NCBI GenBank assembly: GCA_036630325.1
Contig: CP142726.1
Span: forward strand, 558,001-622,000
Direction: 5' to 3'
Source of the DNA: Vairimorpha necatrix
Taxonomy: Eukaryota
Length of the DNA: 64,000 nucleotides
The stretch's first letter is position 1. Each line of letters begins with the position of its first letter. Shown piece after piece: positions 9,803-52,532 of the stretch. The notes under the pieces are model-generated. The model made no database searches. It saw only the letters and a program-made list of their open reading frames with translations, and was not told where the DNA came from. A program made the position numbers and the translations under genes.

Positions 9803-10549
9803 TGTTGAGAATATATATTTAATAAATTTAACCCTTAACTTACAACTATCTTTAACATGGTGGAGAATAAAATTATTGAACCCAAACAAAAAAACAAAAG
9901 AAGAGGTTGTAAGTTACGCCGAGGCATGAGACGTAAAAAATCGCAGTATATGTTAGAATGGGGATGGTTGGTTGTCTAACAGAAGAGAAGGTATGACTTG
10001 CATCAGTCGAGGGGCCCGGATAGGTGGAGAATGAGAGTAGCTATGAAGAGCTATGGAGAAACAGTATTGACTGTAATAAGATCTGGCATAAGAGTTGTCG
10101 AGATTGAGTGTAGTGGTAATCCCACTATTCACATTAAAGCTATCGTGGCAAGATAGCTGAACCACAGTGTTCAAAAATCTAGAGAGATTTAAAAAGAGAA
10201 GAAAATTAAAATGAAAGTCTGTTGTAGTCGAAGAATGAGATAGACGGATAAAATCCAATTCCATTGTTGGAATACATGTGAAAAGAATAATCACATGCCC
10301 ATAGACTTATGTATTATAACAAGGAAAGAAACTACCGCAAAGACCAATACTAGAAGGGATAATAAGACGCGGTAGATAAAGCGCAGCATATGGCCAGTTA
10401 ACATAAAAATGCACTTTTATTTTTAGAGCGAAGTATTAAACTTAGGAAGTAGTAAAGATAATTACATCTCTCAGTTCTAAATTTAGCGCGGGCATGTTGA
10501 GAATATATATTTAATAAATTTAACCCTTAACTTACAATTAACTTTAACA
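9803..10549 (+). mobile_element. Non-autonomous miniature LTR element (TRIM-like), 55-bp LTRs
   Basis: LTRs 9803-9857 and 10495-10549 (TGTTGA...TTAACA, 2 mismatches); PBS TGGTGGAGAAT; TSD ATCAG/ACCAG; no pol motifs inside. Confidence 0.9.
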
Positions 10550-21000: not shown

Positions 21001-21704
21001 GTTCATTATATAACAAATGCTGGATAATTTTCAATTTTTTTCAATAAATGGATTTTAAAATGCAAAATTTTGCATTTTAATCATTTAAGAAGACACAGAA
21101 AATTAAGTTTATAATTTTACTAAGATTATAAAATTAAATTCCATACAAGAACATACAAAAAAAAACTTTTGAGATTACACAAGCAGCTACTTTATAATAA
21201 GAGGAATAAAGAGAAGAGATACACACGGCCCCCGTATTTAAGGGCGTACAATTTTTTCCGAACCTCAAAAATGAAATGCCAAAAAAGTAGAAGTAAGCAA
21301 ATAACAAAAATACTGACCATTTTCGATGACTAAAAAACTTAAAAGATAAATAAGAGGGATACATATAATTTTAAACATATTTGTTCTGTAATTGGCCCAA
21401 AGTAGTTGTTTTCATTTAACAATTTTTATAAATTTACTTAACTTTTTTTTATACAATGCCCTTAAAAATGATCTAGAACTAGAAAGAAGTCGAAGAAATC
21501 ATATGCAATAATAGAAATCGAAAACACCAATTAATCTGTTTATTTTGCGTTAGTATATAAAAATATTCAAAAAAACAAAAGAAACTCAAATGTTCGATGA
21601 GACTGTGAAGAAAAGAAACCATTTTAACAAACAGAAGGCCTTTTTAAAACTCAAAATTTCAATGGTTAAAAAAATATGTGTTACCTTTATCACTTGCGGC
21701 TTTA

Positions 21705-23025
21705 CAGGGATATAGTCGTTTTAGTGCCATGTTTGAATCGTTATAGTGCCATGTTTGAATTTCTATAGTGCCATGTTTAAATTTTTATAGTGCCATGTTT
21801 GAATTTCTATATTCCCATGTTTAAATTTCTATATTCCCATGTTTGAATTTCTATATTCGTATGTTTGAAATGCTATAGTGCCATGTTTGAACTTCTATAG
21901 TACCATAAAAAGTTGAAATTTAAAAATTTATAAAAAGTTTATTAAAATAAGTCTTCTTTTGGCTCTGGACTTTTCTTCCACTCCATCATATTTCTATAAA
22001 ATTCAGGACACAGGCGGCTAAAAATTAAACTCAAAACATTATTAAGACTTGTTTAAATTTGACTTTCTGCATTATGAAAAGATGAAAATCCTGCCTTGAG
22101 CATTGAAAAGAATTCTTCGATGGGATTGAATTGTGGAGAATAAGGAGGCTGAAATTTATGATTGATCTTAGACAGTTTAATTTTAGTAAAACTTCCCGTG
22201 AATGATGAAAACTAGCATTATCAAATATAAGAACTTTGCCCGGATTATTCCTAAAAAACATAGACATTTTTTTCTCCACAAAGTTCATAAAACTCTCAGA
22301 GTTATACGCTCCACGTTTAAACTCAAATGCCAATAATCCATTTATTTTAATTACGCACATGCAGCTGATATTTTGGCCGCGATTTGCTGGCACATTCTTA
22401 TAGGCTTTGGTGTTTTTCTATGAGTATTCGTAACTACGGGTCGAATGAGCGTTGAACCCAGTTTCATCAAGGAAAACTACGTTTTCAACAGAGTACCTAC
22501 TAATTTCAGATGCATAGATACTTCTTTTATTTAACTTGTCCAAAGAATTACGTTTAACAGGAATTAATGAAAGTCCTTTTCTTGTTATGCCTAGTTTTTT
22601 AAGTTTTTCAATATTGAAGATATGCTCAAATTTACTCCTGTTCGTGTATTTAGCTCGTCGCAAATTTCTTTCAAAGTCATATCATTTGCACAATCAACTA
22701 TGTTTTTTATAACACGCTCTGTGTTTGAAAATATTTCGCTTTCACCAAACTGCGGAAAAGGACCAACGGATTGATTGTGCTGTCTTTTTATGATAGATGC
22801 AACGGTTTTACGATGTAAACGAACCATCCTCGATATTTCAACCATCATCGTTTTTCATCTTTCGCTAACTTCAAAACTACATTTCTTAATTCAGTAGTTA
22901 TGGGTTTTCTTTCTTTTCTAACCATTAAGGGGCATAAAAAATGAAAATTTTTATAAATTTTTAAATTTTAACTTTTTATGGTACTATAGAAATTCAAACA
23001 TGGCACTATAGAAATTCAAACCTTG
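21705..23025 (-). mobile_element. Tc1/mariner (DDE_3, approx. DD34E) transposon at the palindrome centre, frameshifted
   Basis: ORF pieces 22591-22848 (HTH-like), FLDETGF, FDNASFHH and PYSPQFNPIEE; flanking TA at 21703-21704 and 23026-23027; ends CAGGG.. / ..CCTTG. Confidence 0.93.
21722..21906 (+). repeat. 22-bp tandem repeat in the Tc1 TIR (8 units plus a partial); about 2 units' worth inverted at 22978-23020
   Basis: Consensus TAGTGCCATGTTTGAATTTCTA, head-to-tail with no spacers. Confidence 0.95.
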
Positions 23026-25350: not shown

Positions 25351-28300
25351 TGTGGTATCCCACATGTCAAACATATCATTTTTGACATTTCTTGATTTGT
25401 TTACCCTGTAAACAAACAAAAAAAAAACTATAAAAGAAAATTCCATACTTAGGGGTATGGAAGATAAGAGAAATAAACTATTTACTCAAAACTTATCTTT
25501 ATTGGAGTTGTACTTCCGCAGGAGGTACGACATATTGAATTCAATAAGAGAGTACAAATATAATGAACTCCCACCCACGCGAGGAAGAGAAATCGCAGGG
25601 CACAACTCCAAAATTCAAGAAACAAAAGTAGTCACCATAAGAATTAAGACAGGTGAAGTGGATCTAGGAATCACTAAGAATGTAGAACTGATCAACGACA
25701 TATTCGAAATCGATCTACTAGGATGGTTCAAAAAGATCGAAGAAATTTTTCAAAGGAACCAATGGAATGAAGAAACTAAAAGGCTCTTTTTATACGATCT
25801 TATAGAAGATCAGATTATAGATAAAACCAAATTGAAAGATGATTATGAAGAGAACAAAAAATACATCATGTCCAAAGTATTTTCACAGAAAAGGGTCGAG
25901 AACTTAATAGCAGAACTGAGTAATCTCAAACAGACTGACCACATCTTCTTCGACGACTATGTAAACGAAATCATGAATCGATTAACTATCTACAGTAAAG
26001 TATCTAACTGTAGCATGAAAGAATACGAACGAAGATCAAAGGAATCTCTATACAGAGGACTAGGCTTAGAAACAGTAAGATATCTCGAGGAACAAAACCT
26101 CGAAACACTACCTGAAATCATACCAGCTCTAAAAAGAATTGAAGAAAACATAATAACAAGATTTAACATACCGAGAAAGCTAAATAACACCTCAGGTATA
26201 AGATTCATGAAAAAATGGTGTAAAGTCCACAAAACTTTGGGACATACAACGAGAGACTGCGGGCAAAGCAATGAAACAAATCGATCGAATATGAGCAAAG
26301 TAAAACACGAAAAATTCAACAACTACAAAAAGACAGTAGTTCCCGATACCAATCAAAATTTAAAAAATACAACGAGAAAGACTTCAGAGCCCAGGGAAAA
26401 TAAAAACTCTTTAAACTATGTTATTTTAGAAAATCCTAACATTGTCGAACAACTCGATATCCCACTCATAATCAACACAAAACATGAGTCAACAGGAACT
26501 ATAGACTGCGGAGCAGGATTAAACTTTATAAAAGCAGACCTCGTAGAACAATGGAACATCACCACTAGAGAAAACAAAGAGATCCAGGTAATGTTCGGTA
26601 ATAAATCTAGTGAAAAAACTAACACTACAATAGAACTCGACTTAAAATTAAAGGATCAAAACGAGACATGCAAGATTGAATTTTACTTATTAAAAAACCT
26701 ACCAGTCAATATTATACTTGGTAGAGATTTCATATCGAGAAACGATATTATATTAGATTTTACAAGAAAGAAAATAATCTGGAACAACGCAACCGTAAAT
26801 ATGAAAACAAATGCAGAAGAAACAGAATTCGAAAAACCCCCAGGAAAAATACTTATCACTAAGGAAGAAGAAAGACTTAGGGAAATTATAGATAATTATA
26901 AAAGAGAAATCAAAGAAAATTGTCCTATAAACACAGATCACGTTAAATTACAAGTTTCAAACAACGACATAAAATGTAAGAAAATTAACTATGCCGTACC
27001 ATCAAACTTTAAAGAAGATGCAATAGCCGAAATACAACGACTTATAACCGCTGACATAATAGAAGAATGTAATGAAAGATACACAAGTCCCGCATTTTTT
27101 AAGAAAAAGAAAAATGGGAAAATGAGATTAATAGTAGACTATAGAGAAATAAATAACTTTGTTGAAGATGAAGTGGAAATAATACCCAAAATGGACGATA
27201 TTATTTATCAACTTGGTAAAAGCGAAGTAATAAGCAAATTAGACTTGACAAACGGGTTTAATCAATTACTCCTAGCAAAAGATAGCAGAAAATGGACAGC
27301 ATTTTCGATATTTGGTAAAACATTCAGGTACAAAAGACTTCCTTTTGGATTAAAAAATGGACCAAAAGCTTTTCAGAAAATCATGAACAAAATACTTTTC
27401 GGGATAAATAACATTTCAGTATATATAGACGACATAATAATTGCCACAAAGGACTACGAATCACACCTCAATACGCTTAAAGAACTGTTCACAAGATTGA
27501 AACATTACAATGTAAATGTAAATTTCGCAAAATCAGAGTTTTGCACAAAGGACACCGAAATCCTAGGAACAAGAATTTTTAACGGAAAAATGTACCCTCT
27601 CACGAAAGACTGTAAACTAACAGAAAACATGAAATGCCACACTAAAAAAGACCTGCAAAAAATAATTGGCATATTTAATTGGTACAGAAAATACATTCCA
27701 AACTTAAGTCTAGAAATTCTAAGCTTAACCGAAAAGCTAAAAGGAAACGAAAAAAAAGTCAAGCTAACAAAAGAAGACAATCTAATAATAAACAAATTAA
27801 TAAGTACACTAAAGAACAATAGCCACCTAGTACTGCCAGACTACAGTAAAAAATTTACACTACATTGCGACGCCTCTGAACTAGGAATGGGCGCAGTACT
27901 ATCACAAGAACACGGAATAATTTTAAATATAAGCATGAAATTTAATAAAACAGAAAGAAATTATACAATAGTGGAAAAAGAATACTTTGCAATAGTATAC
28001 GCGATGGATAAGTGCAGAAACATAGTACTCGGAAATTACGTCGAAATCTATACAGATAACAGGAATTGTCTATTTAAAAGCAAAATAAGCAGAAGAATAG
28101 AAAGATGGGACGCGATGATGATAGAGCACAATTACTGCATAAAACAAATCGCAGGAGAGAATAACTCAGTAGCTGACTACCTATCAAGATGTTTTAAAAT
28201 AGAAAATGTCAGACATGGAAATAACCTTACGAATATAATAGAACAATATGTAGAAAAAATATCAGACGATAAATCCGGAAAGGAAAACTGGGAAAGAAAT

Positions 28301-29450
28301 AAAGATGACAAAATAATGATCAAAAACACCGAAGCAGAAAATTTTCTAACAAAAATACATGAACTAGCCGGCCACCCAGGAATCGTAGTATTAAACAAGA
28401 ATCTCTCTCCTTTCTACAACATAATTGGATTAAAGAACAAAATAATAGCAATAACAAAAAATTGCAGAATGTGTAACTTAAATAAGAAAGAGAAAGTCAA
28501 AACTCAGAAATTACAGATCGAATCTGATAAAATTTACGGAACAATAGCCATGGACATATTTGGACCATTTGAACTTGAAAATTTTGAACATGATACAATC
28601 CATTATAAGGCTTATTACCTTTGCATAACAGACGTTTACTCAAGAATTTCAAGGGTATACCTTCTATATAACATAACGGAAGATACAATAATAAAATGTA
28701 TAGATAAATGGATACAAGAATTTCAACAGCCAGAAAAAATTATCATGGACAATGGCACACAATTTACCGGAGAAAAACTCAGAGAAAAATATGAGAAAAG
28801 TAGAGGAATTAAACTCGTTAACACTCCAATATACCATCCACAAAGCAACGGAATGGCAGAAAGGCAAAACAGTATAATAGCTGAATGTCTAAGGATAAAC
28901 AAGCTAAATAACATCAACGACATAACAAATAAAATTAACATTAAACTTAACGTAAATTACAAAAGAACTATTGGATGTTCTCCATTCGAATTAGAGAAAC
29001 AATACAGCTTTTTTGACCCATTCAGACGACAAAGCAACCTAAAGGAACCAAAATACAAATCAGTTCCAGCCACACTGAACCAGAATAACGATAAAAAATT
29101 AAAAATAAATGATAAAGTATTTGTAAGAGATTTCAAAGCTGGGAAAATGGATGAACAATATAAAGGACCCTGTACGATCAAAGAGGTTGGGAAGAAAGGA
29201 AACTGGGTTAAAGTAGAAGAAGGAGGCAACTGGATCCACATAAAGGACATTAAAAGAAGAGGGTAGGATGTGGTATCCCACATGTCAAACATATCATTTT
29301 TGACATTTCTTGATTTGTTTACCCTGTAAACAAACAAAAAAAAAACTATAAAAGAAAATTCCATACTTAGGGGTATGGAAGATAAGAGAAATAAACTATT
29401 TACTCAAAACTTATCTTTATTGGAGTTGTACTTCCGCAGGAGGTACGACA
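25351..29450 (+). mobile_element. Intact, young Ty3/Gypsy LTR retrotransposon
   Basis: Identical 182-bp LTRs (25351-25532, 29269-29450); TSD ATATC; PPT AAAAGAAGAGGGTAGGA; empty site in left arm at 19362-19366. Confidence 0.98.
25457..29266 (+). CDS. Gag-Pol polyprotein, 1269 aa (CHHC knuckle, protease, RT, RNase H, integrase)
   Basis: CKVHKTLGHTTRDC, IDCGAG, LPFGLKNGP..YIDD, CDAS, HHCC, MDNGTQF..SNGMAER and GPC motifs in one open frame. Confidence 0.97.
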   Translation: MEDKRNKLFTQNLSLLELYFRRRYDILNSIREYKYNELPPTRGREIAGHNSKIQETKVVTIRIKTGEVDLGITKNVELINDIFEIDLLGWFKKIEEIFQRNQWNEETKRLFLYDLIEDQIIDKTKLKDDYEENKKYIMSKVFSQKRVENLIAELSNLKQTDHIFFDDYVNEIMNRLTIYSKVSNCSMKEYERRSKESLYRGLGLETVRYLEEQNLETLPEIIPALKRIEENIITRFNIPRKLNNTSGIRFMKKWCKVHKTLGHTTRDCGQSNETNRSNMSKVKHEKFNNYKKTVVPDTNQNLKNTTRKTSEPRENKNSLNYVILENPNIVEQLDIPLIINTKHESTGTIDCGAGLNFIKADLVEQWNITTRENKEIQVMFGNKSSEKTNTTIELDLKLKDQNETCKIEFYLLKNLPVNIILGRDFISRNDIILDFTRKKIIWNNATVNMKTNAEETEFEKPPGKILITKEEERLREIIDNYKREIKENCPINTDHVKLQVSNNDIKCKKINYAVPSNFKEDAIAEIQRLITADIIEECNERYTSPAFFKKKKNGKMRLIVDYREINNFVEDEVEIIPKMDDIIYQLGKSEVISKLDLTNGFNQLLLAKDSRKWTAFSIFGKTFRYKRLPFGLKNGPKAFQKIMNKILFGINNISVYIDDIIIATKDYESHLNTLKELFTRLKHYNVNVNFAKSEFCTKDTEILGTRIFNGKMYPLTKDCKLTENMKCHTKKDLQKIIGIFNWYRKYIPNLSLEILSLTEKLKGNEKKVKLTKEDNLIINKLISTLKNNSHLVLPDYSKKFTLHCDASELGMGAVLSQEHGIILNISMKFNKTERNYTIVEKEYFAIVYAMDKCRNIVLGNYVEIYTDNRNCLFKSKISRRIERWDAMMIEHNYCIKQIAGENNSVADYLSRCFKIENVRHGNNLTNIIEQYVEKISDDKSGKENWERNKDDKIMIKNTEAENFLTKIHELAGHPGIVVLNKNLSPFYNIIGLKNKIIAITKNCRMCNLNKKEKVKTQKLQIESDKIYGTIAMDIFGPFELENFEHDTIHYKAYYLCITDVYSRISRVYLLYNITEDTIIKCIDKWIQEFQQPEKIIMDNGTQFTGEKLREKYEKSRGIKLVNTPIYHPQSNGMAERQNSIIAECLRINKLNNINDITNKINIKLNVNYKRTIGCSPFELEKQYSFFDPFRRQSNLKEPKYKSVPATLNQNNDKKLKINDKVFVRDFKAGKMDEQYKGPCTIKEVGKKGNWVKVEEGGNWIHIKDIKRRG

Positions 29451-36855: not shown

Positions 36856-37525
36856 GTAAGCATTTTTTACCTTTCCGATTTTTTTATTTGTTTATTATAA
36901 GAAATGATTTTTTAAAGAAAATCTTCTTAAATAATAAACCAAAAAAAAATAGAAGTATCATAAATATACGAAAATTTAGGCAAATGTTTTACAATCCAGA
37001 CAGATTTTTTAATCAAAAAAAGGAAAATATTTTAATGTTTAAAGAAGCAGGTTTTGCGAGTGCTAATGCTTGCTTCTCCTTTTTGCGCTTCTTTTTAGGG
37101 TCTAAAACAAAGTAAACACCTTCTGAAGAGGGCGTTTTGGGTCCCAACAAAAAAATCGGAAAAGTAAAAAAATGATTACTAATCTATATGGTTGTAATAG
37201 CTTATTTTTAAGTATAAGTTTGTATATAAATGTATATTTATTTATTGCTTTTAAAATCATAAGTACTTGAAAATTCCGTCTCCTTCTAGCTCCTGCTTTT
37301 TGAAATTCATTTATGGGTTCGAAAAAATGAAATGAACAACCTTGTAGCGTGAGGTTTCGGATCTCACCTTTTAAATTTATTAAAGCTATTTAAAGTATCT
37401 CCATTGAGCAGAAAAAGTATAGTAAAAAAGGATATCATACGAAAACAAAGCAAAAATGATCATAATTTTATATTCAACAAAACATTTTTTTTACATTAGG
37501 AAATTTTTTACTGCTTTAAACACAG

Positions 37526-40500
37526 TGTTGATAATTTTAAATATTTTATACGTAACCCCTAATTTTTATGGAGAATAACAATAAACATATTAACATGGTG
37601 GAGAATGAGATAGAACCCATGAATACAGAGATTAGTAGAGATAACATTATAAATGAGATGTGAAGGTTTGAGTTAATGTCCTTTTTTAAGAATATGGAGG
37701 ACGAGAGAAAGATTGAGTGGATTATGAGTAGAGCCAGTTACGATTTAATCGACTGGCACTACGAGACTATTGTGGGTCATAAAAAAATGACCTTTGTGAA
37801 ATGGAGACAGTTGGCTTTAGAAGCATTCGGAAATAAAACATTGTCTTTAGCAAAACTGTACCGAATGAAGCAGGACAAAGATGAAAGCATTAAACGATAT
37901 ATCATGAATGTAAAGTCTTCTTCACGGATATTTAAACTTAAAGAAGAAGAAGTAATTGAAATTATTACAGGTGGGATAAGAGATGAACTTGGAAGAGTAA
38001 AAAATTTTTTGGAAATTAGTGGATCTTTGGATGAAAAAATTATTGATAAGTTGACAATCATAGAAGAAGAATGTTTAGAAGAAAATAAGAGAAAACAAGA
38101 AATTCAAGATTTACTGAAGAAACTTGAAAGTTTAAAAATCGAAACTACTAAACAAACCATTAAATGTTACAACTGTCAAAAATTAGGACATATTGCAAGA
38201 AACTGTCGTATGGGAACCAATTATAATCAACAGGGAAGTAAGAAAGTGAATGAAATAAGCACCGAATTATCAGACATTATTAAAAATAAAGAAAATTCAG
38301 TTTATTTTTATGGACAAGAGGTTCCTGTTACTTTTGACACTGGATCAACGTACAACTTTATCAGTAACGCGGTAGCTGAAAAGTTTAATCTACCATTTCA
38401 ATGGAATTCTAAAGAAATGATATTTAGGACCTGCCTTGAAGAGCCTTTTATTGTAAACAAACATACATTTATTGATTTGACGTATAAAGACCAAGTTTAT
38501 CGTTTTAAATTTTTTATTTTACCCAAAGTGAGAATCGAGAAAGTATTGATCGGGAAAAATGGGACGAGGGAGATGATGAAAATAGAAAATGAAGGATATG
38601 TGTGTGAAATCAAAACGGAACCAGGCAAAAAAGTTGTAGAACCCGTATATACATTGTCGAAGAACATGGAAGAAGGCGTTGGAATGGCGATTCAGAAGCT
38701 TTTAAGCAAGGGATACATTCAGGAGTCTAAGTCTACGTGGCTTAATAATATTCGGCCGGTAATAAAACCAGATGGTTCCATTCGAGTGACTACAAATTTA
38801 GTGGCGTTAAATAAACTAGTTGAACTTGACAGATATTCCCTCCCCAGAATAGACGAGATTTTATGTAATTTGCGTGGAATGAAATTTTTTTCAAAATTAG
38901 ACCTGGAAGATGGTTTTTTTCAAATTAAATTGTTGGAAAGAGATAGATTTAAAACAGCATTTAGATTTAAACATAGACTATACGAGTGGAAGGTAATGCC
39001 TCAAGGATATAAAAATTCTCCCGCAATATTCCAAAGGTTCATGGATTTTGCACTTAAAGAAGAAATAGGAAAGAGTTGTTTCTGTTACGTGGATGATATT
39101 TTAATTTTTGGCAGAAATGAAAAGGAACACGATGAGGCATATAAAAGAATTAGAGAAGCTTTGGATAGAAACAAGCTTAAAATAAATGAAGAAAAATCTA
39201 GTTTTAAACAGCGTGAAATCGACTTTTTAGGACATCATATAGAAGAAAATAGGATACTACCATTAGTTGATAAGTTACAAGGAATAGAAGATTTAAAATC
39301 ACCAAAGGATAAGCAACAGCTACAGGAATTTTTAGGAACAATTAACTACTATAGAAGATTTATTAAAGACTGCTCCGGTATATGTAGTCCACTGTATGAA
39401 TTATTAAAAGACAAGAAACAGTTCATTTGGATAGAGGAAGAAGAGAAACTTTTTAGGAAGATCAAAGAGATTCTCAAAATGAACACAGGATTATTCCAGC
39501 CAGATTATACTAAAGATTTTATTTTGACAACGGACGCTTCTGAGTATGGAATCGCGGCAGTACTTAGTCAAATTATTGATAAAAAGGAGATACCCATTGC
39601 GTTTGCTTCTAGGAAACAAAAAGACCATGAAATTAATTATGGTATTAGTGAAAAAGAGTGTTTGGCTATGTTATGTGGCATGGAAAATTTTAATTACTTT
39701 TTATATGGAGCGAACTTTGAGGTAATAACAGATCATAAAGCATTAGAAGTGCTTAATAAAGGTGAAATTAACTCCCCGAGAATTCAAAGATGGTTAGATA
39801 GAATGTCTAGATATTGCTTTAAAGTTACGTACAGGGAGGGCAAAGACATACCTCACGTAGATTGTTTAAGCAGAAATTTTGATTTCGTTGAAAATGAGGA
39901 AATAAAGGATGATAATAAACAAATAGAGGAAGACAAGAAAGACAGGAAGAATATTGAAAATAAAAATAACGAAGAAGAAGAAATTGAATTCAAGAAGATT
40001 AGGGTCGAAGAAAAAGAAATTGTGCGAGCTATTCATTTAGAACTATTACATAGAGGAAAACAATCATTAGAGTATGAAATTAGAAAAAGAGGACTCAAAA
40101 TATAAAATGTAGAAAAGCTAGTTAAAGAAGTAGTAAATGAATGTGAAATATGTTGTCAATACAATTTAAAAAAGAAAAAAAAGTTTATTTTTGTTACGGC
40201 ATTTGAAAGAGGAGAAAAGGTTGCGGTGGATATAATAGGCCCAATAGGAAAGCAATATATCATATCAGCAATTGATTATTTTACTAGAGAAGGTTTTGCA
40301 AAAGTTCTTAGTTCAAGAAACGATGAAAAGGTAGTAAGTTTTATAGAAGATGTCAACGAAAAGGTCAAGATAAAAACACTTATATTAGATCAGTCAAAAG
40401 AAAATTTAAGTTCAAAGGTCGTCAACTTTTGTAAGCATCATAATATTGAGTTACATTATACATCTCCCTACCATCACCAATCCAATGGTAGAGTAGAGAG

Positions 40501-40994
40501 ATTTAATAGGACACTACAAGATCTAATATTTAAGAATAAGGAAGACAGTTTTTTAAAAACGAAGTTAAAAAGAGCTATAGAGATTTAGAACAACATATTT
40601 AATACTGGAATCTCAATGACACCCCAAGAAGCAACCTTGTTAAATGTACAAGACAAACTAAGACGGATTCAAATGGAAAATATAATAAAATACAATAAAA
40701 AGAATGGAAAAGGTGAGCAAGAACATTTTTTTAGACCAGGGGAGGTTGTGCTAATCAGACAAGAAGGAAATAGAGGAAAAGGTAGCCCTAAGTTTAAGGT
40801 TCGAGGATGTGTTTATAAAGCTTTAAAAAATAATGCGTTTATAATCAAGATAGGAAAAAAGAAAATAAAAAGACACGCTTCTCAGTTAAAGCTTTTAGTT
40901 GATGAGCCAATTTTGTAGAGGGGGATGTTGATAATTTTAAATATTTTATATGTACCCCTAATTTTTATGGAGAATAACAATAAACATATTAACA
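37526..40994 (+). mobile_element. Ty3/Gypsy element with 69-70 bp LTRs and three premature stops
   Basis: LTRs 37526-37595 and 40926-40994; TSD CACAG; PBS TGGTGGAGAATG; PPT AGAGGGGGA; ORFs 37676-40105 (CCHC, FDTGS, YVDD, TDAS), 40226-40588 and 40616-40918. Confidence 0.97.
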
Positions 40995-41505
40995 CACAGA
41001 AATAAAAAAAAATTGAAGTAAGGATATAATGGCGCATAAAAAAATCTAACTTTCAATCTGTGATGTTATGCCTAACATCCCAATTAAGTTTAATTGGTTT
41101 ATTTGTCAAATGATTCAGGATGACCAACCATGAGGCCATACAAACAAACAAAACGAAATCATATATTTCGTGGTACAATTATTAATACTCACATGTTTGT
41201 TGTAATATTGGGAAGGACGAATACGTCATCATAAAATATAAAAGGAAACTTCACAAAGAAGGGTACAGAATGTTCAGAGAGGAAAACACTAACAAGAAGG
41301 GTGAGTCTAGAAATGGGAAGACCCCATACGCCCAAAATAAATATAATAATATAAACAACAATAAAAGTATTTTAAACAATTATTTTAAATTCATGAAACT
41401 TCCTGTGATACAGGACACAATCAAAAGCCCATAGTCGTAGAAAAAACAAACGGAGTTCTCGAAGCGCAGTTATAAAGATTCGAATCCTCCCATTTATGAA
41501 TCATT

Positions 41506-41630: not shown

Positions 41631-44600
41631 CGGTAACCGTAAATTCGCCAAAAATTAAAATTTGCTCGTTTTTCGCCAAAAAAATACAAAAAAAATTGAT
41701 TGGTATTAAGAACGAATAAAAAATTTGAAAAGCTTTATTTAATTTAAATTAAAATTTGTTGGCTATTCAAAAAGCATTTATAATTAAAATAGGTTTTTTG
41801 AATTTACTTATTCGCATTTGAAATTCACGTGTTGCAGTAAAGCATTTATGTACTCTTCACGAGAATAATGTTATTTATTTTTAACGTATATTCTAACTTT
41901 TTCCTCCGCTTTTTTGGTTTTTTAGCTTCAAATAATCCTTTTTTATAACGTTTTAGATTATATATATCCATTTCTTCACAATCGAGTATTCTTGAAATAA
42001 AAAGAGCGATATTTTAATTTCTTGTCTCCATCCTCTTGTTGATGGTTCTATTCCAGCTTTCTGCATTGTTAGAAGTCCGAGGAATTTCATTTTTTACCCT
42101 ATCAAATACATTCCAAAAATTTATATTGGCGACAGCTCTCCCACCATTATCTTCTCTTTTTACATTTGAAACTAAATAATTATTTTCAAAGTATAACTGA
42201 AAGTTGGCTGTGGTTGTAATTGAATTATCTTGTATAAATTTCTTAATATCTTTATAAAAAACCGACACATCTCGTATTGACACAAAAGCAAACCTACGCC
42301 TCTTTTTGAATACTAGATTATAGTTAGAATCATTTTAAAACTTTTCTATGTCCCCCATCGCCCCGACTCTTTTATAGGCTGCCTGCCCAAGATGAAACAA
42401 GCATCCATTACAGTTTGCTTCAGGGAAAGATATTCGTAATGCATTGACCAATCTTATCTCAAAAACAGTCACAAAGTTCTCAACATTTATAGTAACTAAT
42501 TCCTTGCATTTATCGAAGGCTCTAGAATATGACCCTTCAATTTTATCCTTGAGTAAAATATAAATGTATGTGTTGAGTGAAATAATAATTATTTATAGCC
42601 CCTATTCTAGAATAAATGTTTATGGTGGAGAATATGAAAACAGAGATTAGTAGTGAAAATATCTTGCAGGAGCTACAAAGAGCTTCTTTACTTTCCAGTT
42701 TTAATAAATTATCAAATGAGGAAAAAATTGATTATTTTATTCATAAAGCCAACATTGAGATACTAGATTGGCATAGTAAGTTAATGAAGGAGAAACGGAA
42801 ATGTTCCTTAACATTTGAAATGTGGAAAGAGTTGGCAGAAACGGAATTTGACTGCGGTACTGGATTGTACGAATTATATACTTTAAAACAAAAAGAAAAC
42901 CAAAGTATTGTGGAATTTATCAAAGATGTAGAAAAGAAATGTCTAAAGGAAAATATCAGAAATACGGATAAAAGGAAGATAATAAGAAATGGAATCCTAT
43001 CAAGATATAAGGCTATAAAAATGGTATTAACGGGGCAATATGAAATTAATAAAGAATTCCTTGAAATAATTGATGAAATGGAAAAGGAAAATAACGATAT
43101 AACAAAAATAAGACAACCTGCCTCCAATAACATCAACAAAAGATATTCATGTTATTTTTGCCACAAGGATGGGCATATCGCTAAAGACTGTTTTGCGAAG
43201 AAGAAAAGAACTGATGGTAAACAACTACAGTATAAAAGGATAAATGAGATCCACCAAGAAGGCGGAATGTTGGATGCAAACTTTATTAACAATAAAGAAG
43301 ATTTAATATATGTTTATAATGAAAAAATTAATGTAACTTTTGACTCGGGTTCTTACTATAATTTTATGAGTAAAAGGCTGCTTCTGAACTAACTTTAAAA
43401 ATTTATAGAAGTACAGAGGAAATATATTTTTTAACATGTTTAGAAGAAAGATTCGGGATTACAGAATATGTGATATTAGATTTCTCTTATGGTGGTAAAA
43501 GTTATCGTTCTAAATTTTTTATATTCCCTAAGGTGGAAAAATTTAAAATACTTGTAGGAAAAAAGACATTACAAGAAATATTGAAAAGGGTGTCTAGCAA
43601 TAGAATTTGTGAAATAAATACGATAAAAGGAGAAAAAATTGTTGAAAAGGTCTATACACTACCAAAAAAGTTAGAAGAAGGAGTGGAAAAATCTATCAAA
43701 GAACTACTAAGGAAAAATTACATAAGAAAATCAAAATCAACGTGGTTGAATAATTTAAGACCAGTAATTAAACCAGATGGTTCTATAAGAGTTACTACAA
43801 ATTTAGTTTCGTTAAACAAATTGGTAGAGCTAGATAATTACTCCTTACCACACATTGATAAGCTTTTATACGGGCTTCGTGGAAAAAAATATTTTAGTAA
43901 ATTGGATTTAAAAGATGCATTTTTTTGTATAGAATTAGCGGAAAAAGATAGATATAAGACCGCTTTCAGATTTAAGCACCTATTATATGAATGGAACGTT
44001 ATGCCAATGGGGTTTAAAAATGCTCCGGCAATTTTTCAAAGATTTATAGATGATGTTTTACAAGAAGAAATAGGGAAAAGTTGCTTCGTGTATGTGGATG
44101 ACATACTGGTTTTTGGAGAAAACGAGGAAGAACATGATTTTAATTATGAGAAGATCATAACAAAGCTTAAAAGCTATAACTTAGGTATTAATGAGGATAA
44201 AACAATATATAAGGTTAAAGAACTTACCTTTTTGGGACATTTAATAGCATATAACGAAATTAAGCCAAAAATTACACGGGACCAAGCAATTAACGATATG
44301 AAAAGACCAATCAATAAAAAATCACTGCAAGAATTTCTGGGACTTATTAATTATTATAGAAAATTTATTCCTAATTGTTCAAAAATCGGAGGATGTTTAT
44401 ATGATCTTACAAAAAATGATATTCAATTTAATTGGGGGAAGGAACAGGATGCTGCTTTTAATACATTAAAGAAAATTGTATTGTCGAGCAGTGTGCTTAA
44501 ACAGCCAGATTTTAGTAAACCTTACATATTAGAAACGGATGCATGTGACTCTGGTCTGGGAGCGATCTTGTCACAAGAAAATGAAGGGCATGTGTACCCA

Positions 44601-46651
44601 ATCGCGTACGCTTCTAGAAGATTGGTTCCAGCGGAAAGAAATTACAGTATCAGCGAGAAAGAATGCTTGGGTGTCCTATGGGGAATGGAAAATTTTAGAT
44701 ATTTTTTATATGGAAATGAGTTTAAAGTAATAACTGATCACAAAGCTCTAGAGGTCCTAAATAAAGGCGAAATAAAATCGTTACGTATACAAAGGTGGCT
44801 TGATAAATTGAGTGAGTATAATTACACGATCGAGTACAAAAGGGGGACAGATATTCCTCACGTCGATTGTTTGTCAAGATCTTATCTTAATGAGTTAAAT
44901 ACGGATGAAATAAATATGATTGAATTTAGCGAAGAAGAAAAAAGGTCTATCATAAGGAATAAACATATAGAATTAGTTCACAGAGGATCAAAAGTTATTG
45001 AAAATGAATTAAGGAAAAAATATCATTGGAAAGATATGTCGCATATGGTAAAAACGGAAATTAATAAATGTCTAAGATGTAAGATGTACAATCCACAAAG
45101 AGGAAAAAAAATTATATTTGTGACAGCATACGAACCTGGCGAAAAGGTAGCTGCCGATATTATAGGACCAATCAATGGAAGCTATATAATTACGGCGATC
45201 GACTATTTTACAAGGAAAGCATGGGCTAAAGTCATTACTACTAGAGAGAGTAATAAGCTAGTAAGATTTTTTGATGAAGTTTATAATGACATAAAGATTA
45301 AAATACTAATTCTTGATCAGTCAAAAGAAAATTTGAGTATTGAGGTAAAACAATGGGCAACGAGAAATAATGTTCAAATTCATTATATTTCCCCTTTTCA
45401 TCACCAATCAAACGGAAGAATAGAAAGATTTAATAGGACAATACAGGAAGGTATATATAAAGATAATAGTTTTGGAAATTTGAAGACAAAAACTAAGCGT
45501 GTACTAGATGTATACAATAATGTTAGACACTCCGCTCTTGGCATGTCGCCAGACGAAGCATGTAATCCTAAGAGAGCTCAGGAGATTAAACTAAAACAAT
45601 TCGAAGAAATCGTAAAATTCAACCAACGATAGAAGAAAAGAGGAGCTGAATTTATTTTTAAAGAGGGAGATAGAGTTATAATTAGAAGAGAAACCGATTT
45701 AACAAAGGGAAAACCTAGATTTGAATCGCAAGGTATAATTATTAATATTTTAGGAAATAATTCTTATAACGTTAAGGTCCATAATAAAACTATAAAGCGA
45801 CATGGCTCGCAACTTAAGCTAATAGTAGAGGATTATTTTGAATGAGGGGGATGTTGAGTGAAATAATAATTATTTATAGCCCCTATTCTAGAATAAATGT
45901 TTAGTATGGAAAATTTTTGCCAAATATATGTCCATGAAAGACGACAATTTGGTAAAATCCTTGAGGAGAAGATTTAAACGTTCCGTCGACAACGAACGTG
46001 TCTATTTTTTCAATCATATTTTTTTTGAATTCTAAAAAAAATATTATAAATCTAACATTATCCTGCATACCACTATCAAATCTAAGAAAACGATTTTTTT
46101 TAGAATCTACTTGCAAGACTTCGGGTATATCCATAATGCAACCAGTTATAAATCCGAGTCTTGAATTTCTTGTTCGTTTGATTGTATCTCTTAAATATTC
46201 TATGGAAGGCATTTTAGTAATATCTAAGCTGGTTGACAATGCTGGGAATTGTTTTTTTATTACTTCTAGGGAGTTTTCATTACTTGTAGCAACTTGTTCT
46301 TTTATTTTTGATAGTTCTTTTAAACATGCATTTCTCAGGTACTGGTTCATGTGAAAAAATAACTTTTTTAACGATTTCGTTTTGTTCATTCATTGTAATG
46401 GCTCCTCTACAAGACCTATTATTGCGCCTCCATCGCTTAGTGCCGTCCTTATTGTAGTCTAAAGTGTATGTCCGATCTTCATAGATAAGATTTTGCCCTC
46501 CACGTTGACCTTTAAAAATTTTAAAGTTGTCGTTCATTTTTTTAAGGGTAGATTTTCGGCGAAAAAAGGAAAAATTTTTGGCGAAAACAACCATTTTTGA
46601 ACTTTTAGCGAAAAACCGTAAATTCGCCTGTAGGCGAATTTGCGGGTACCC
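41631..46651 (-). mobile_element. FLYWCH-MULE (same family as 288-1963), split by a Gypsy insertion
   Basis: Same TIRs and closely similar ORF pieces (46280-46594, 45901-46389, 42014-42283). Confidence 0.94.
42571..45903 (+). mobile_element. Ty3/Gypsy element with identical 52-bp LTRs; one frameshift and one late stop
   Basis: LTRs 42571-42622 and 45852-45903; TSD GTATG; PBS TGGTGGAGAAT; PPT GAGGGGGA; ORFs 42616-43392 (gag, CCHC, FDSGS) and 43470-45632 (RT, RNase H, integrase). Confidence 0.97.
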
Positions 46652-52229: not shown

Positions 52230-52532
52230 AATATCTTACATAGAATATGCCTTTGATTCAGAAATTATAGGTATCATTCATGGAATCCTTATAGAAAATC
52301 TCGTACAAGGAAAAAACGATATAGGGTTATCTGGTATTATCACGGATAACAAGAATTCGATAGATAATATACAGATCAATATCTTACATAGAATATGCCT
52401 ATGATTCAGAAATTATAGGTATCATTTATGGAATCCTTATAGAAAATCTCGTACAAGGAAAAAACGATATAGGGTTATCTGGTATTATCACGGTAAAAAA
52501 GAATTCGATAGATAATATACATATCAATATCT
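52230..52532 (+). repeat. Tandem duplication, 148-bp unit x2
   Basis: Units start at 52230 and 52378 with few mismatches; AATATCT at each junction. Confidence 0.93.

Follow-up and report, generated by a model that had tools for sequence, protein, structure and literature searches.

Three elements in a 64,000-nucleotide stretch of the Vairimorpha necatrix genome (assembly GCA_036630325.1, contig CP142726.1, positions 558,001 to 622,000 of the forward strand; hereafter the window, in whose coordinates all positions are given) are shown to belong to a clade of compact Ty3/gypsy long terminal repeat (LTR) retrotransposons of a V. necatrix-like microsporidian, from which the noncoding parts have been squeezed out. 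The elements are called E1, E2 and E3 and begin at positions 9803, 37526 and 42571. The plan of the clade is an element of ~3.3-3.5 kb with LTRs of 52-70 bp with its primer-binding site (PBS) abutting the LTR and lying inside the gag-pol frame. Gag, protease (PR), reverse transcriptase (RT), RNase H and integrase (IN) share one frame, and in E3 the polypurine tract (PPT) overlaps the stop codon. Taken as a whole, together with the mechanism proposed below for the LTR and the PBS, this explanation is given a probability of roughly 0.7.

The ends of E3 were established by comparison of positions 42400-46100 with contigs of a public DNA-like run, here called X1. The features of E3, including its target-site duplications (TSDs), are the following.

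42571-45903, plus strand: whole element, 3,333 bp, Ty3/gypsy with a gag-PR-RT-RNase H-IN plan
42566-42570, no strand: left TSD, GTATG; the empty-site allele in X1 holds a single GTATG
42571-42622, plus strand: 5' LTR, 52 bp, TG...TA, 52/52 identical to the 3' LTR
42623-42633, plus strand: PBS, TGGTGGAGAAT, directly abutting the 5' LTR
42616-43392, plus strand: gag (CCHC knuckle), then the N-terminal portion of PR, which includes DSG; frame lost near 43371
43377-45629, plus strand: remainder of PR, followed by RT, RNase H and integrase (H2C2 and core); in the window copy these lie in the +1 frame with respect to gag
45630-45632, plus strand: in-frame TAG in the C-terminal region of integrase; the X1 contig has C at 45630
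45633-45845, plus strand: C-terminal tail of integrase, with stop TGA at 45843-45845; homologous to the E2 tail at 40616-40918
45840-45851, plus strand: PPT, GAATGAGGGGGA, containing the pol stop TGA and abutting the 3' LTR
45852-45903, plus strand: 3' LTR, 52 bp, identical to the 5' LTR
45904-45908, no strand: right TSD, GTATG, read from the sequence and the X1 empty site

One X1 contig continues the left flank after 42570 with GAAAACTTTT, and the right flank of the window after the second GTATG reads GAAAATTTTT. A second contig, which carries the right flank from 45904, is preceded by AATATAAAT, the sequence found at 42557-42565 of the window. These flank contigs are the empty E3 site with its single GTATG. 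A further X1 contig of 3,226 nt spans the element and links 45851 back to 42571 via exactly 52 common letters, which is the expected collapse of one LTR plus the internal part. This contig differs from the window copy by six substitutions and one indel, and therefore represents a second copy with an LTR of equal length. Because X1 shows both an empty site and another copy that bears the 52-nt repeat, the ends of E3 are exact and its insertion is polymorphic, and the family has therefore been mobile recently. The 52-bp LTRs, TSD and adjoining PBS that the original prediction, made from the sequence alone, had placed at 42571-45903 are thus upheld. The E3 LTR terminates in TA rather than CA, and the TSD and the empty site permit no other placement of its end.

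The X1 contig has an extra A behind 43371 and a C, rather than a T, at 45630, and these are the two places at which the frame of the window copy is broken. Therefore, the window copy is defective, and copies of the family read through both places. The E3 protein is 99% identical to the annotated V. necatrix protein P0002 (245/248 and 557/559 residues), which is unbroken where the E3 frame is lost near 43371. Pfam domains recognized in E3 are RVT_1 (2.3e-33), RT_RNaseH (1.3e-35), Integrase_H2C2 and rve; the CCHC knuckle scores 16.9 bits, under the cut-off. The 5' LTR holds a TATA-like stretch at its position 22, CCCC at 29-32, AATAAA at 41-46 and an in-frame ATG at 46-48. The last base of the LTR and the PBS together read ATG GTG GAG AAT (MVEN), in frame with gag. 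In-frame ATGs of gag lie at 42616, 42622 and 42634, and the frame begins MF-MVEN-MKTEIS....

E3 is inserted within a minus-strand open reading frame (ORF), the pieces of which lie at 41901-42570 and 45909-46500. When the element and one copy of the TSD are deleted in silico, 238 aa are open over the junction (...HGHIFGKNF|PYIYILLKDK...). The pieces have no Pfam match, and an ORF with a similar start lies at 866-1624 on the plus strand; by eye only, the interrupted ORF looks like a repeated, transposase-like gene. A 57-nt repeat at 1906-1962 and 46594-46650, with the palindrome CCGTAAATTCGC...GCGAATTTACGG, adjoins both copies of this transposase-like ORF family, and a 79-nt repeat (96%) is present at 209-287 and 1964-2042. 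Both repeats may be ends of a DNA transposon.

The features of E2 and of E1, a non-coding derivative, are as follows.

37526-40994, plus strand: E2, whole element, 3,469 bp
37526-37595, plus strand: E2 5' LTR, 70 bp, TG...CA
37521-37525 and 40995-40999: E2 TSD, CACAG, 5/5 match
37596-37606, plus strand: E2 PBS, TGGTGGAGAAT (MVEN)
37676-40105, plus strand: E2 gag-PR-RT-RNase H in a single frame, 809 aa
40226-40588 and 40616-40918, plus strand: E2 integrase remnants, in two pieces, with stop TAG at 40916-40918
40926-40994, plus strand: E2 3' LTR, 69 bp, 97% identical to the 5' LTR (blastn-short)
9803-10549, plus strand: E1, whole element, 747 bp, non-coding derivative
9803-9857 and 10495-10549, plus strand: E1 LTRs, 55 bp, TG...CA, 53/55 match
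9858-9868, plus strand: E1 PBS, TGGTGGAGAAT

Pfam matches in the E2 polyprotein are zf-CCHC (29.1 bits), Asp protease, RVT_1 and RT_RNaseH; the ORF that follows matches rve. The 5' LTR has CCCC at positions 31-34, an in-frame ATG at 43-45 and AATAAA at 55-60, and the start of the frame reads MENNNKHIN-MVEN-EIEP-MNTEIS.... The sequence AGGGGGA follows the stop TAG directly before the 3' LTR, and the PPT of E2 is TAGAGGGGGA. The E2 LTRs also carry, at 37569-37576 and 40968-40975, TGGAGAAT, a copy of the last eight bases of the PBS within the in-frame ATGGAGAAT (MEN). The related protein P0001 likewise begins MEN...MVEN, as does E2. This copy of the PBS tail may be a trace of LTR growth from ~52 to 70 nt.

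E1 has no ORF longer than 40 codons and, its own LTRs excepted, shows no similarity to other sequence in the window. Its TSD is imperfect (ATCAG/ACCAG, a 4/5 match), and the sequence before its 3' LTR, GCGCGGGCA, is not a clear PPT. The codons that begin at the LTR-PBS junction, MVENKIIEP, resemble MVENEIEP of E2 and MVENIKIEP of P0001. From its sequence, E1 looks like a deletion derivative, and it has the short LTRs, PBS, lack of coding sequence and small size of the non-autonomous terminal-repeat retrotransposons in miniature (TRIMs). No solo LTRs of E1, E2 or E3 were detected elsewhere in the window by blastn-short.

Assignment to the Ty3/gypsy superfamily follows from the matched LTRs (E3 52/52, E2 70/69 nt at 97%, E1 53/55), TSDs within the 4-6 bp range, the CCHC knuckle of gag and the order PR-RT-RNase H-IN in E2 and E3. 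A PPT lies directly 5' of the 3' LTR in E3 and E2, and an 11-mer that begins with TGG lies directly 3' of all three 5' LTRs. The LTR termini are TG...CA in E1 and E2 and TG...TA in E3. In agreement with the original prediction, the LTRs of the three elements measure 55, 70 and 52 bp, and the PPT is clear in the two coding elements (GAATGAGGGGGA and TAGAGGGGGA) and not in E1. Its 5-bp TSDs are exact at E3 (GTATG) and E2 (CACAG, each 5/5), and at E1 only four of the five bases agree.

These arrangements were compared with chance. The window holds three exact copies of the PBS 11-mer, all of them at LTR ends. When one mismatch is allowed, five matches were found where 1.06 would be expected; near-matches at 10022, 22131 and 54554 have no LTR context. 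The LTRs of E1-E3 all begin with TGTTGA; a TATA-like stretch rich in A and T comes next, then a CCC block and a variable 20-36 nt. The pattern TGTTGA-N18-28-CCC occurs eight times in the window, against 2.33 expected, and none of 100 shuffles reaches eight; six of the eight matches are the six LTR copies of E1-E3. The GC content of the window is 26-39%, and that of V. necatrix is 28.3% (PMC10759460, excerpt); with the match to P0002, this makes the host V. necatrix or a species very near to it. As had been proposed, a CCC motif is found inside each LTR, and at a fixed place, beginning at position 30 in E1, 31 in E2 and 29 in E3.

Translation of the PBS was examined through related proteins. 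Thirteen of the 19 best matches to the E2 polyprotein were inspected; the other six span 52-62% of the query, without gag. Among the 13, the nine relatives that are N-terminally complete and at least 37% identical all have the motif MVE[NDS]. It begins at residue 1 in P0007, P0009, P0010 and P0011, at residue 6 in P0006 and P0015, at residue 10 in P0001 and P0008, and at residue 19 in P0003. The inspected relatives without it number four: P0002, whose annotation begins at the next ATG; P0005, which lacks a complete N terminus; and P0018 and P0019, which are more distant. In P0007 and P0011 the methionine of MVE is the sole one before the first invariant column of gag, and the ORFs of P0009 and P0010 have it as their first. 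Therefore, the junction ATG must be the initiation codon in some lineages. The sequence after MVE is unconserved until ~20 residues further on, and the best explanation of the motif is therefore a constraint that the PBS imposes on the nucleotides and that is kept in frame.

The prediction that the PBS is translated is thus solid by comparison of sequences. As originally claimed, no leader separates the LTR from gag; the PBS abuts the LTR and lies inside the frame. The reading of ATG GTG GAG AAT in frame with gag also holds for both coding elements, except that the frame in E2 is closed by TGA at 37661-37663, 22 codons past MVEN. The further claim that the PBS forms the start of gag stands in part: MVE is translated and must initiate in some relatives, but the E2 and E3 LTRs hold an upstream in-frame ATG. 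An ATG arises automatically wherever an LTR that ends in A abuts a PBS that begins with TGG; what is special here is that gag starts at or before this ATG, with no leader.

Wider searches place the motif within the clade. Only one of 33 further profile matches shorter than 1,300 aa (P0161) has MVE, which makes it a clade character rather than a general Ty3 trait; long multi-copy fusion predictions topped the profile list. The gag ORF alone as query found no homologue of similar length. From a metagenome scan, 80 loci were kept, with further TGGTGGAG matches among them, and only one locus, L001, resembled the compact clade. The contig of L001 (3,383 nt) is circularly permuted and represents a related element at 44% identity; in it, at ~826-900, 57 nt separate the pol stop from the gag ATG. 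The gap holds two CCC blocks, and gag starts A|TGGAACAT. Because LTRs can overlap coding sequence, as in the element with 182-bp LTRs described below, this gap sets no bound on the LTR of L001. A scan of viral contigs gave 54 loci, nearly all on contigs of 7-9 kb, at 27-34% identity.

A mechanism can be proposed by analogy with host genes. A CCC or GGG motif is found no more than 30 bp from the start in 77% of V. necatrix genes for functionally characterized proteins (PMC10759460, excerpt), and ACCCTT, present exactly in the LTR of E1, is the motif reported for N. apis (PMC11592040, excerpt). The CCC block of the LTRs thus resembles a promoter-like motif of Nosema and Vairimorpha (PMC11592040, PMC10759460, excerpts). 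In Encephalitozoon cuniculi, 5' untranslated regions (UTRs) are shorter than 7 nt and transcripts often extend beyond AAUAAA (PMC2803860, excerpt). In the proposed mechanism, the first ~30 nt of the LTR, with TGTTGA, the TATA-like stretch and ACCC or CCCC at 29-34, would serve as U3 and promoter. Transcription would start a few bases past the CCC block, as in host genes, and the remaining 20-36 nt would be the R region used in the first strand transfer, with little or no U5. Poly(A) would be added at or past the LTR end, and minus-strand strong-stop DNA of ~20-36 nt would pair inside the 3' LTR.

A host tRNA that ends in ...AUUCUCCACCA would prime at TGGTGGAGAAT. With a 5' strand of GGGGAAU (GGGGAAT) and a 3' end of ATTCTCCA, which would give G3:U70 and A73, the alanine identity set, the candidate would be tRNA-Ala, as the original prediction had it; a 5' strand of GGAGAAU would instead indicate some other tRNA. 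Neither ARAGORN nor Rfam found a tRNA or other RNA family in the window. The ATG made from the last LTR base and the TGG would be translated, and would be the initiation codon where there is no in-frame ATG upstream. In E3 and E2, the position of the transcription start would decide whether the junction ATG is the first AUG of the mRNA or the second.

Several points weigh against this account. The one public run that covers this stretch is DNA-like, and the placement of transcription start, poly(A) site, R and U5 is deduced throughout. AATAAA is 6 nt from the LTR end in E3 and 10 nt in E2, and in E1 it is upstream of the CCC block; thus a classical division into R and U5 is not an obvious fit. 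The primer tRNA is a candidate only, its AUUCUCCACCA 3' end having been deduced from the PBS. The MVE motif is limited to a narrow clade, with the single case among 33 further matches noted above and none in P0018 or P0019. The LTRs of E2 and E3 have in-frame ATGs 8 and 13 nt past CCCC, five of the nine relatives have upstream in-frame methionines, and leaders as short as those of the host would favour these LTR-internal ATGs over the one at the junction. P0002, the near-identical copy, has an NCBI model that starts at the next ATG downstream (MKTEISS). Lastly, no uninterrupted gag-pol ORF is found in the window copies of either coding element, given that E2 has the TGA at 37661 and a split IN, and E3 has the frameshift near 43371, inside PR, and the TAG at 45630. 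With both copies broken, this locus itself is not autonomous, and the 'autonomous-type' label of the original prediction applies to the architecture and not to the coding copies in the window.

Rather than at the junction, gag might start at the LTR-internal ATG, in a layout like that of Ty1, such that the PBS supplies internal codons (residues 3-6 in E3 and 10-13 in E2) and the junction ATG an internal methionine. The reading MENNNKHIN-MVEN from LTR position 43 of E2, with its counterpart MENKDFKSN-MVEN in P0001, would suit this layout, as would MF-MVEN from LTR position 46 of E3. The five relatives with an upstream in-frame methionine have it 5-18 codons before MVE, and ATGs 8-13 nt past CCCC suit the very short microsporidian leaders (PMC2803860, excerpt). 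A neighbouring element with 182-bp LTRs, at 25351-29450, begins its 1,269-aa ORF in the LTR after GGGG, and the PBS of Ty1 itself is inside the GAG ORF (PMC4974528, excerpt). However, four of the nine relatives have no in-frame ATG before MVE, and in two of these MVE offers the sole possible methionine. The upstream sequence in frame in E1 is a stop rather than an ATG. The upstream ATG of E3 is followed by T at +4, where E. cuniculi starts prefer A or G (PMC2803860, excerpt). A start inside the LTR is thus plausible and on balance doubtful.

It is unlikely that gag starts at the next ATG downstream (MKTEIS... in E3 and MNTEIS... in E2), which would leave the PBS in an untranslated leader of 12-24 nt and make its in-frame state incidental. 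The MKTEISS start of the NCBI model P0002, the M-[KN]-TEIS common to E2 and E3, and the A at both +4 and +5 of the downstream ATG would fit such a start. Nevertheless, in both window families and in each of the nine complete relatives the MVE codons are open and in frame, the conserved core of gag is preceded by no other methionine in P0007 and P0011, and a scanning ribosome would reach the junction AUG earlier. Weakest is the view that the short repeats are not working LTRs but chance repeats, assembly artefacts or relics of masters with long LTRs: just one or two copies of each family were observed here, neither coding copy is intact and collapsed contigs such as L001 give no LTR bounds for relatives outside the window, but this view is made very improbable by three families with the same plan and TSDs, by the independent X1 copy with the same 52-nt repeat together with the empty-site allele, and by repeats that begin right after the PPT and end right at the PBS.

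A compact clade whose PBS is translated could be taken further, into a joint reading that is offered tentatively and is on balance improbable. In this reading, a self-sufficient lineage would house its promoter, R, U5 and both integrase end-sites in an LTR of ~50 nt, with a strand-transfer repeat of at most ~20 nt. The primer site would be the initiation codon and the first four codons of Gag, such that annealing of the tRNA and initiation of translation would be mutually exclusive on any one RNA, and would act as a switch between mRNA and template. More generally, the overlap of PBS and start codon is a testable model for one RNA shared by translation and reverse transcription.

LTRs are described in textbooks as a hundred bp to several kb long, and LTR finders have a default minimum of ~100 bp. 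Finders with such a minimum would miss these families, and both the LTR-element content of microsporidia and the ages of insertions may be undercounted. Should an LTR of 52 nt suffice for transcription, strand transfer and integration, it would mark a lower limit to the necessary content of an LTR, and textbook sizes would reflect habit rather than need. The compaction of microsporidian genomes would also extend to the parasites of the genome, as in the leaderless gag, the translated PBS and the overlap of PPT and stop.

TRIMs are non-autonomous and have LTRs of ~100-250 bp, LTRs of Ty1 are ~330 bp, and the TSD of Ty3 is 5 bp. E1 is like a TRIM in its length of 747 bp, its 55-bp LTRs, its PBS and its lack of coding sequence, with no clear PPT, whereas E2 and E3 carry the full gag-pol and yet have shorter LTRs than TRIMs do. 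Saccharomyces Ty1, with its PBS inside the GAG ORF, is a precedent for a translated PBS (PMC4974528, excerpt). Unlike E1-E3, it is a copia-type element with IN before RT and a programmed frameshift, and its PBS is well inside GAG, not at the initiation codon. Saccharomyces Ty3 resembles E2 and E3 in the order PR-RT-RH-IN, in its 5-bp TSD and in priming by tRNA, as proposed here for E2 and E3. However, Ty3 has an RNA of 5.2 kb that includes UTRs at both ends and two ORFs that overlap, and a bipartite PBS, with one part next to the 5' UTR and the other within the 3' UTR (PMC4974528, excerpt); the element here has 3.3 kb, a single ORF and no UTR between LTR and ORF. Mosquito woot-like elements are said to have 'unusually short LTRs', with no lengths given (PMC3286476). 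The best named matches to the E2 polyprotein are V. necatrix proteins.

Relatives from the same superfamily and host phylum are the Nbr elements of Nosema bombycis and the microsporidia-specific groups of Parisot et al. 2014 (PMC4202319, excerpt). Microsporidian Ty3/gypsy elements encode gag-pol as one polyprotein, according to the summary of Parisot et al. 2014 in PMC13174016 (excerpt), and the same is found here; single-ORF elements of this kind are thus known from microsporidia (PMC4202319, PMC13174016, excerpts). The excerpted text of these two papers states no LTR length, PBS position or start-codon overlap. None of the LTR-related terms sought in PMC7313128 occurs there, and 'LTR' is absent from PMC10759460. 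The literature search found no LTRs of 50-70 bp with a full gag-pol and no overlap of PBS and start in microsporidia, although curated repeat libraries may hold such consensus sequences. The Nbr elements were reportedly described by Xu et al. 2006. A prior description of the compact clade may exist, given that this paper, the supplement tables of PMC4202319 and Repbase/Dfam lay outside the search.

Other repeats are present in the window. The element at 25351-29450 is a fourth Ty3/gypsy element, of another family, 4,100 bp long with identical 182-bp LTRs (TG...CA) and the TSD ATATC on both sides. Its intact gag-pol ORF of 1,269 aa runs from 25457, at position 107 of the 5' LTR and right after GGGG, to a stop TAG at 29264-29266 within a run of purines adjoining the 3' LTR. 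The 5' LTR is followed by TATTGAATTC..., which does not begin with TGG, and its primer site is therefore of another kind. A tandem array at 21678-21941 has nine copies of a 22-nt unit (TAGTGCCATGTTTGAATTTCTA-like). Dispersed repeat pairs with 71-81% identity, at 33427-34301/58287-59361, 52703-53316/61020-61628 and 32964-33139/36150-36325, are probably older copies of other repeat families. A 148-nt tandem duplication (96%) lies at 52230-52525.

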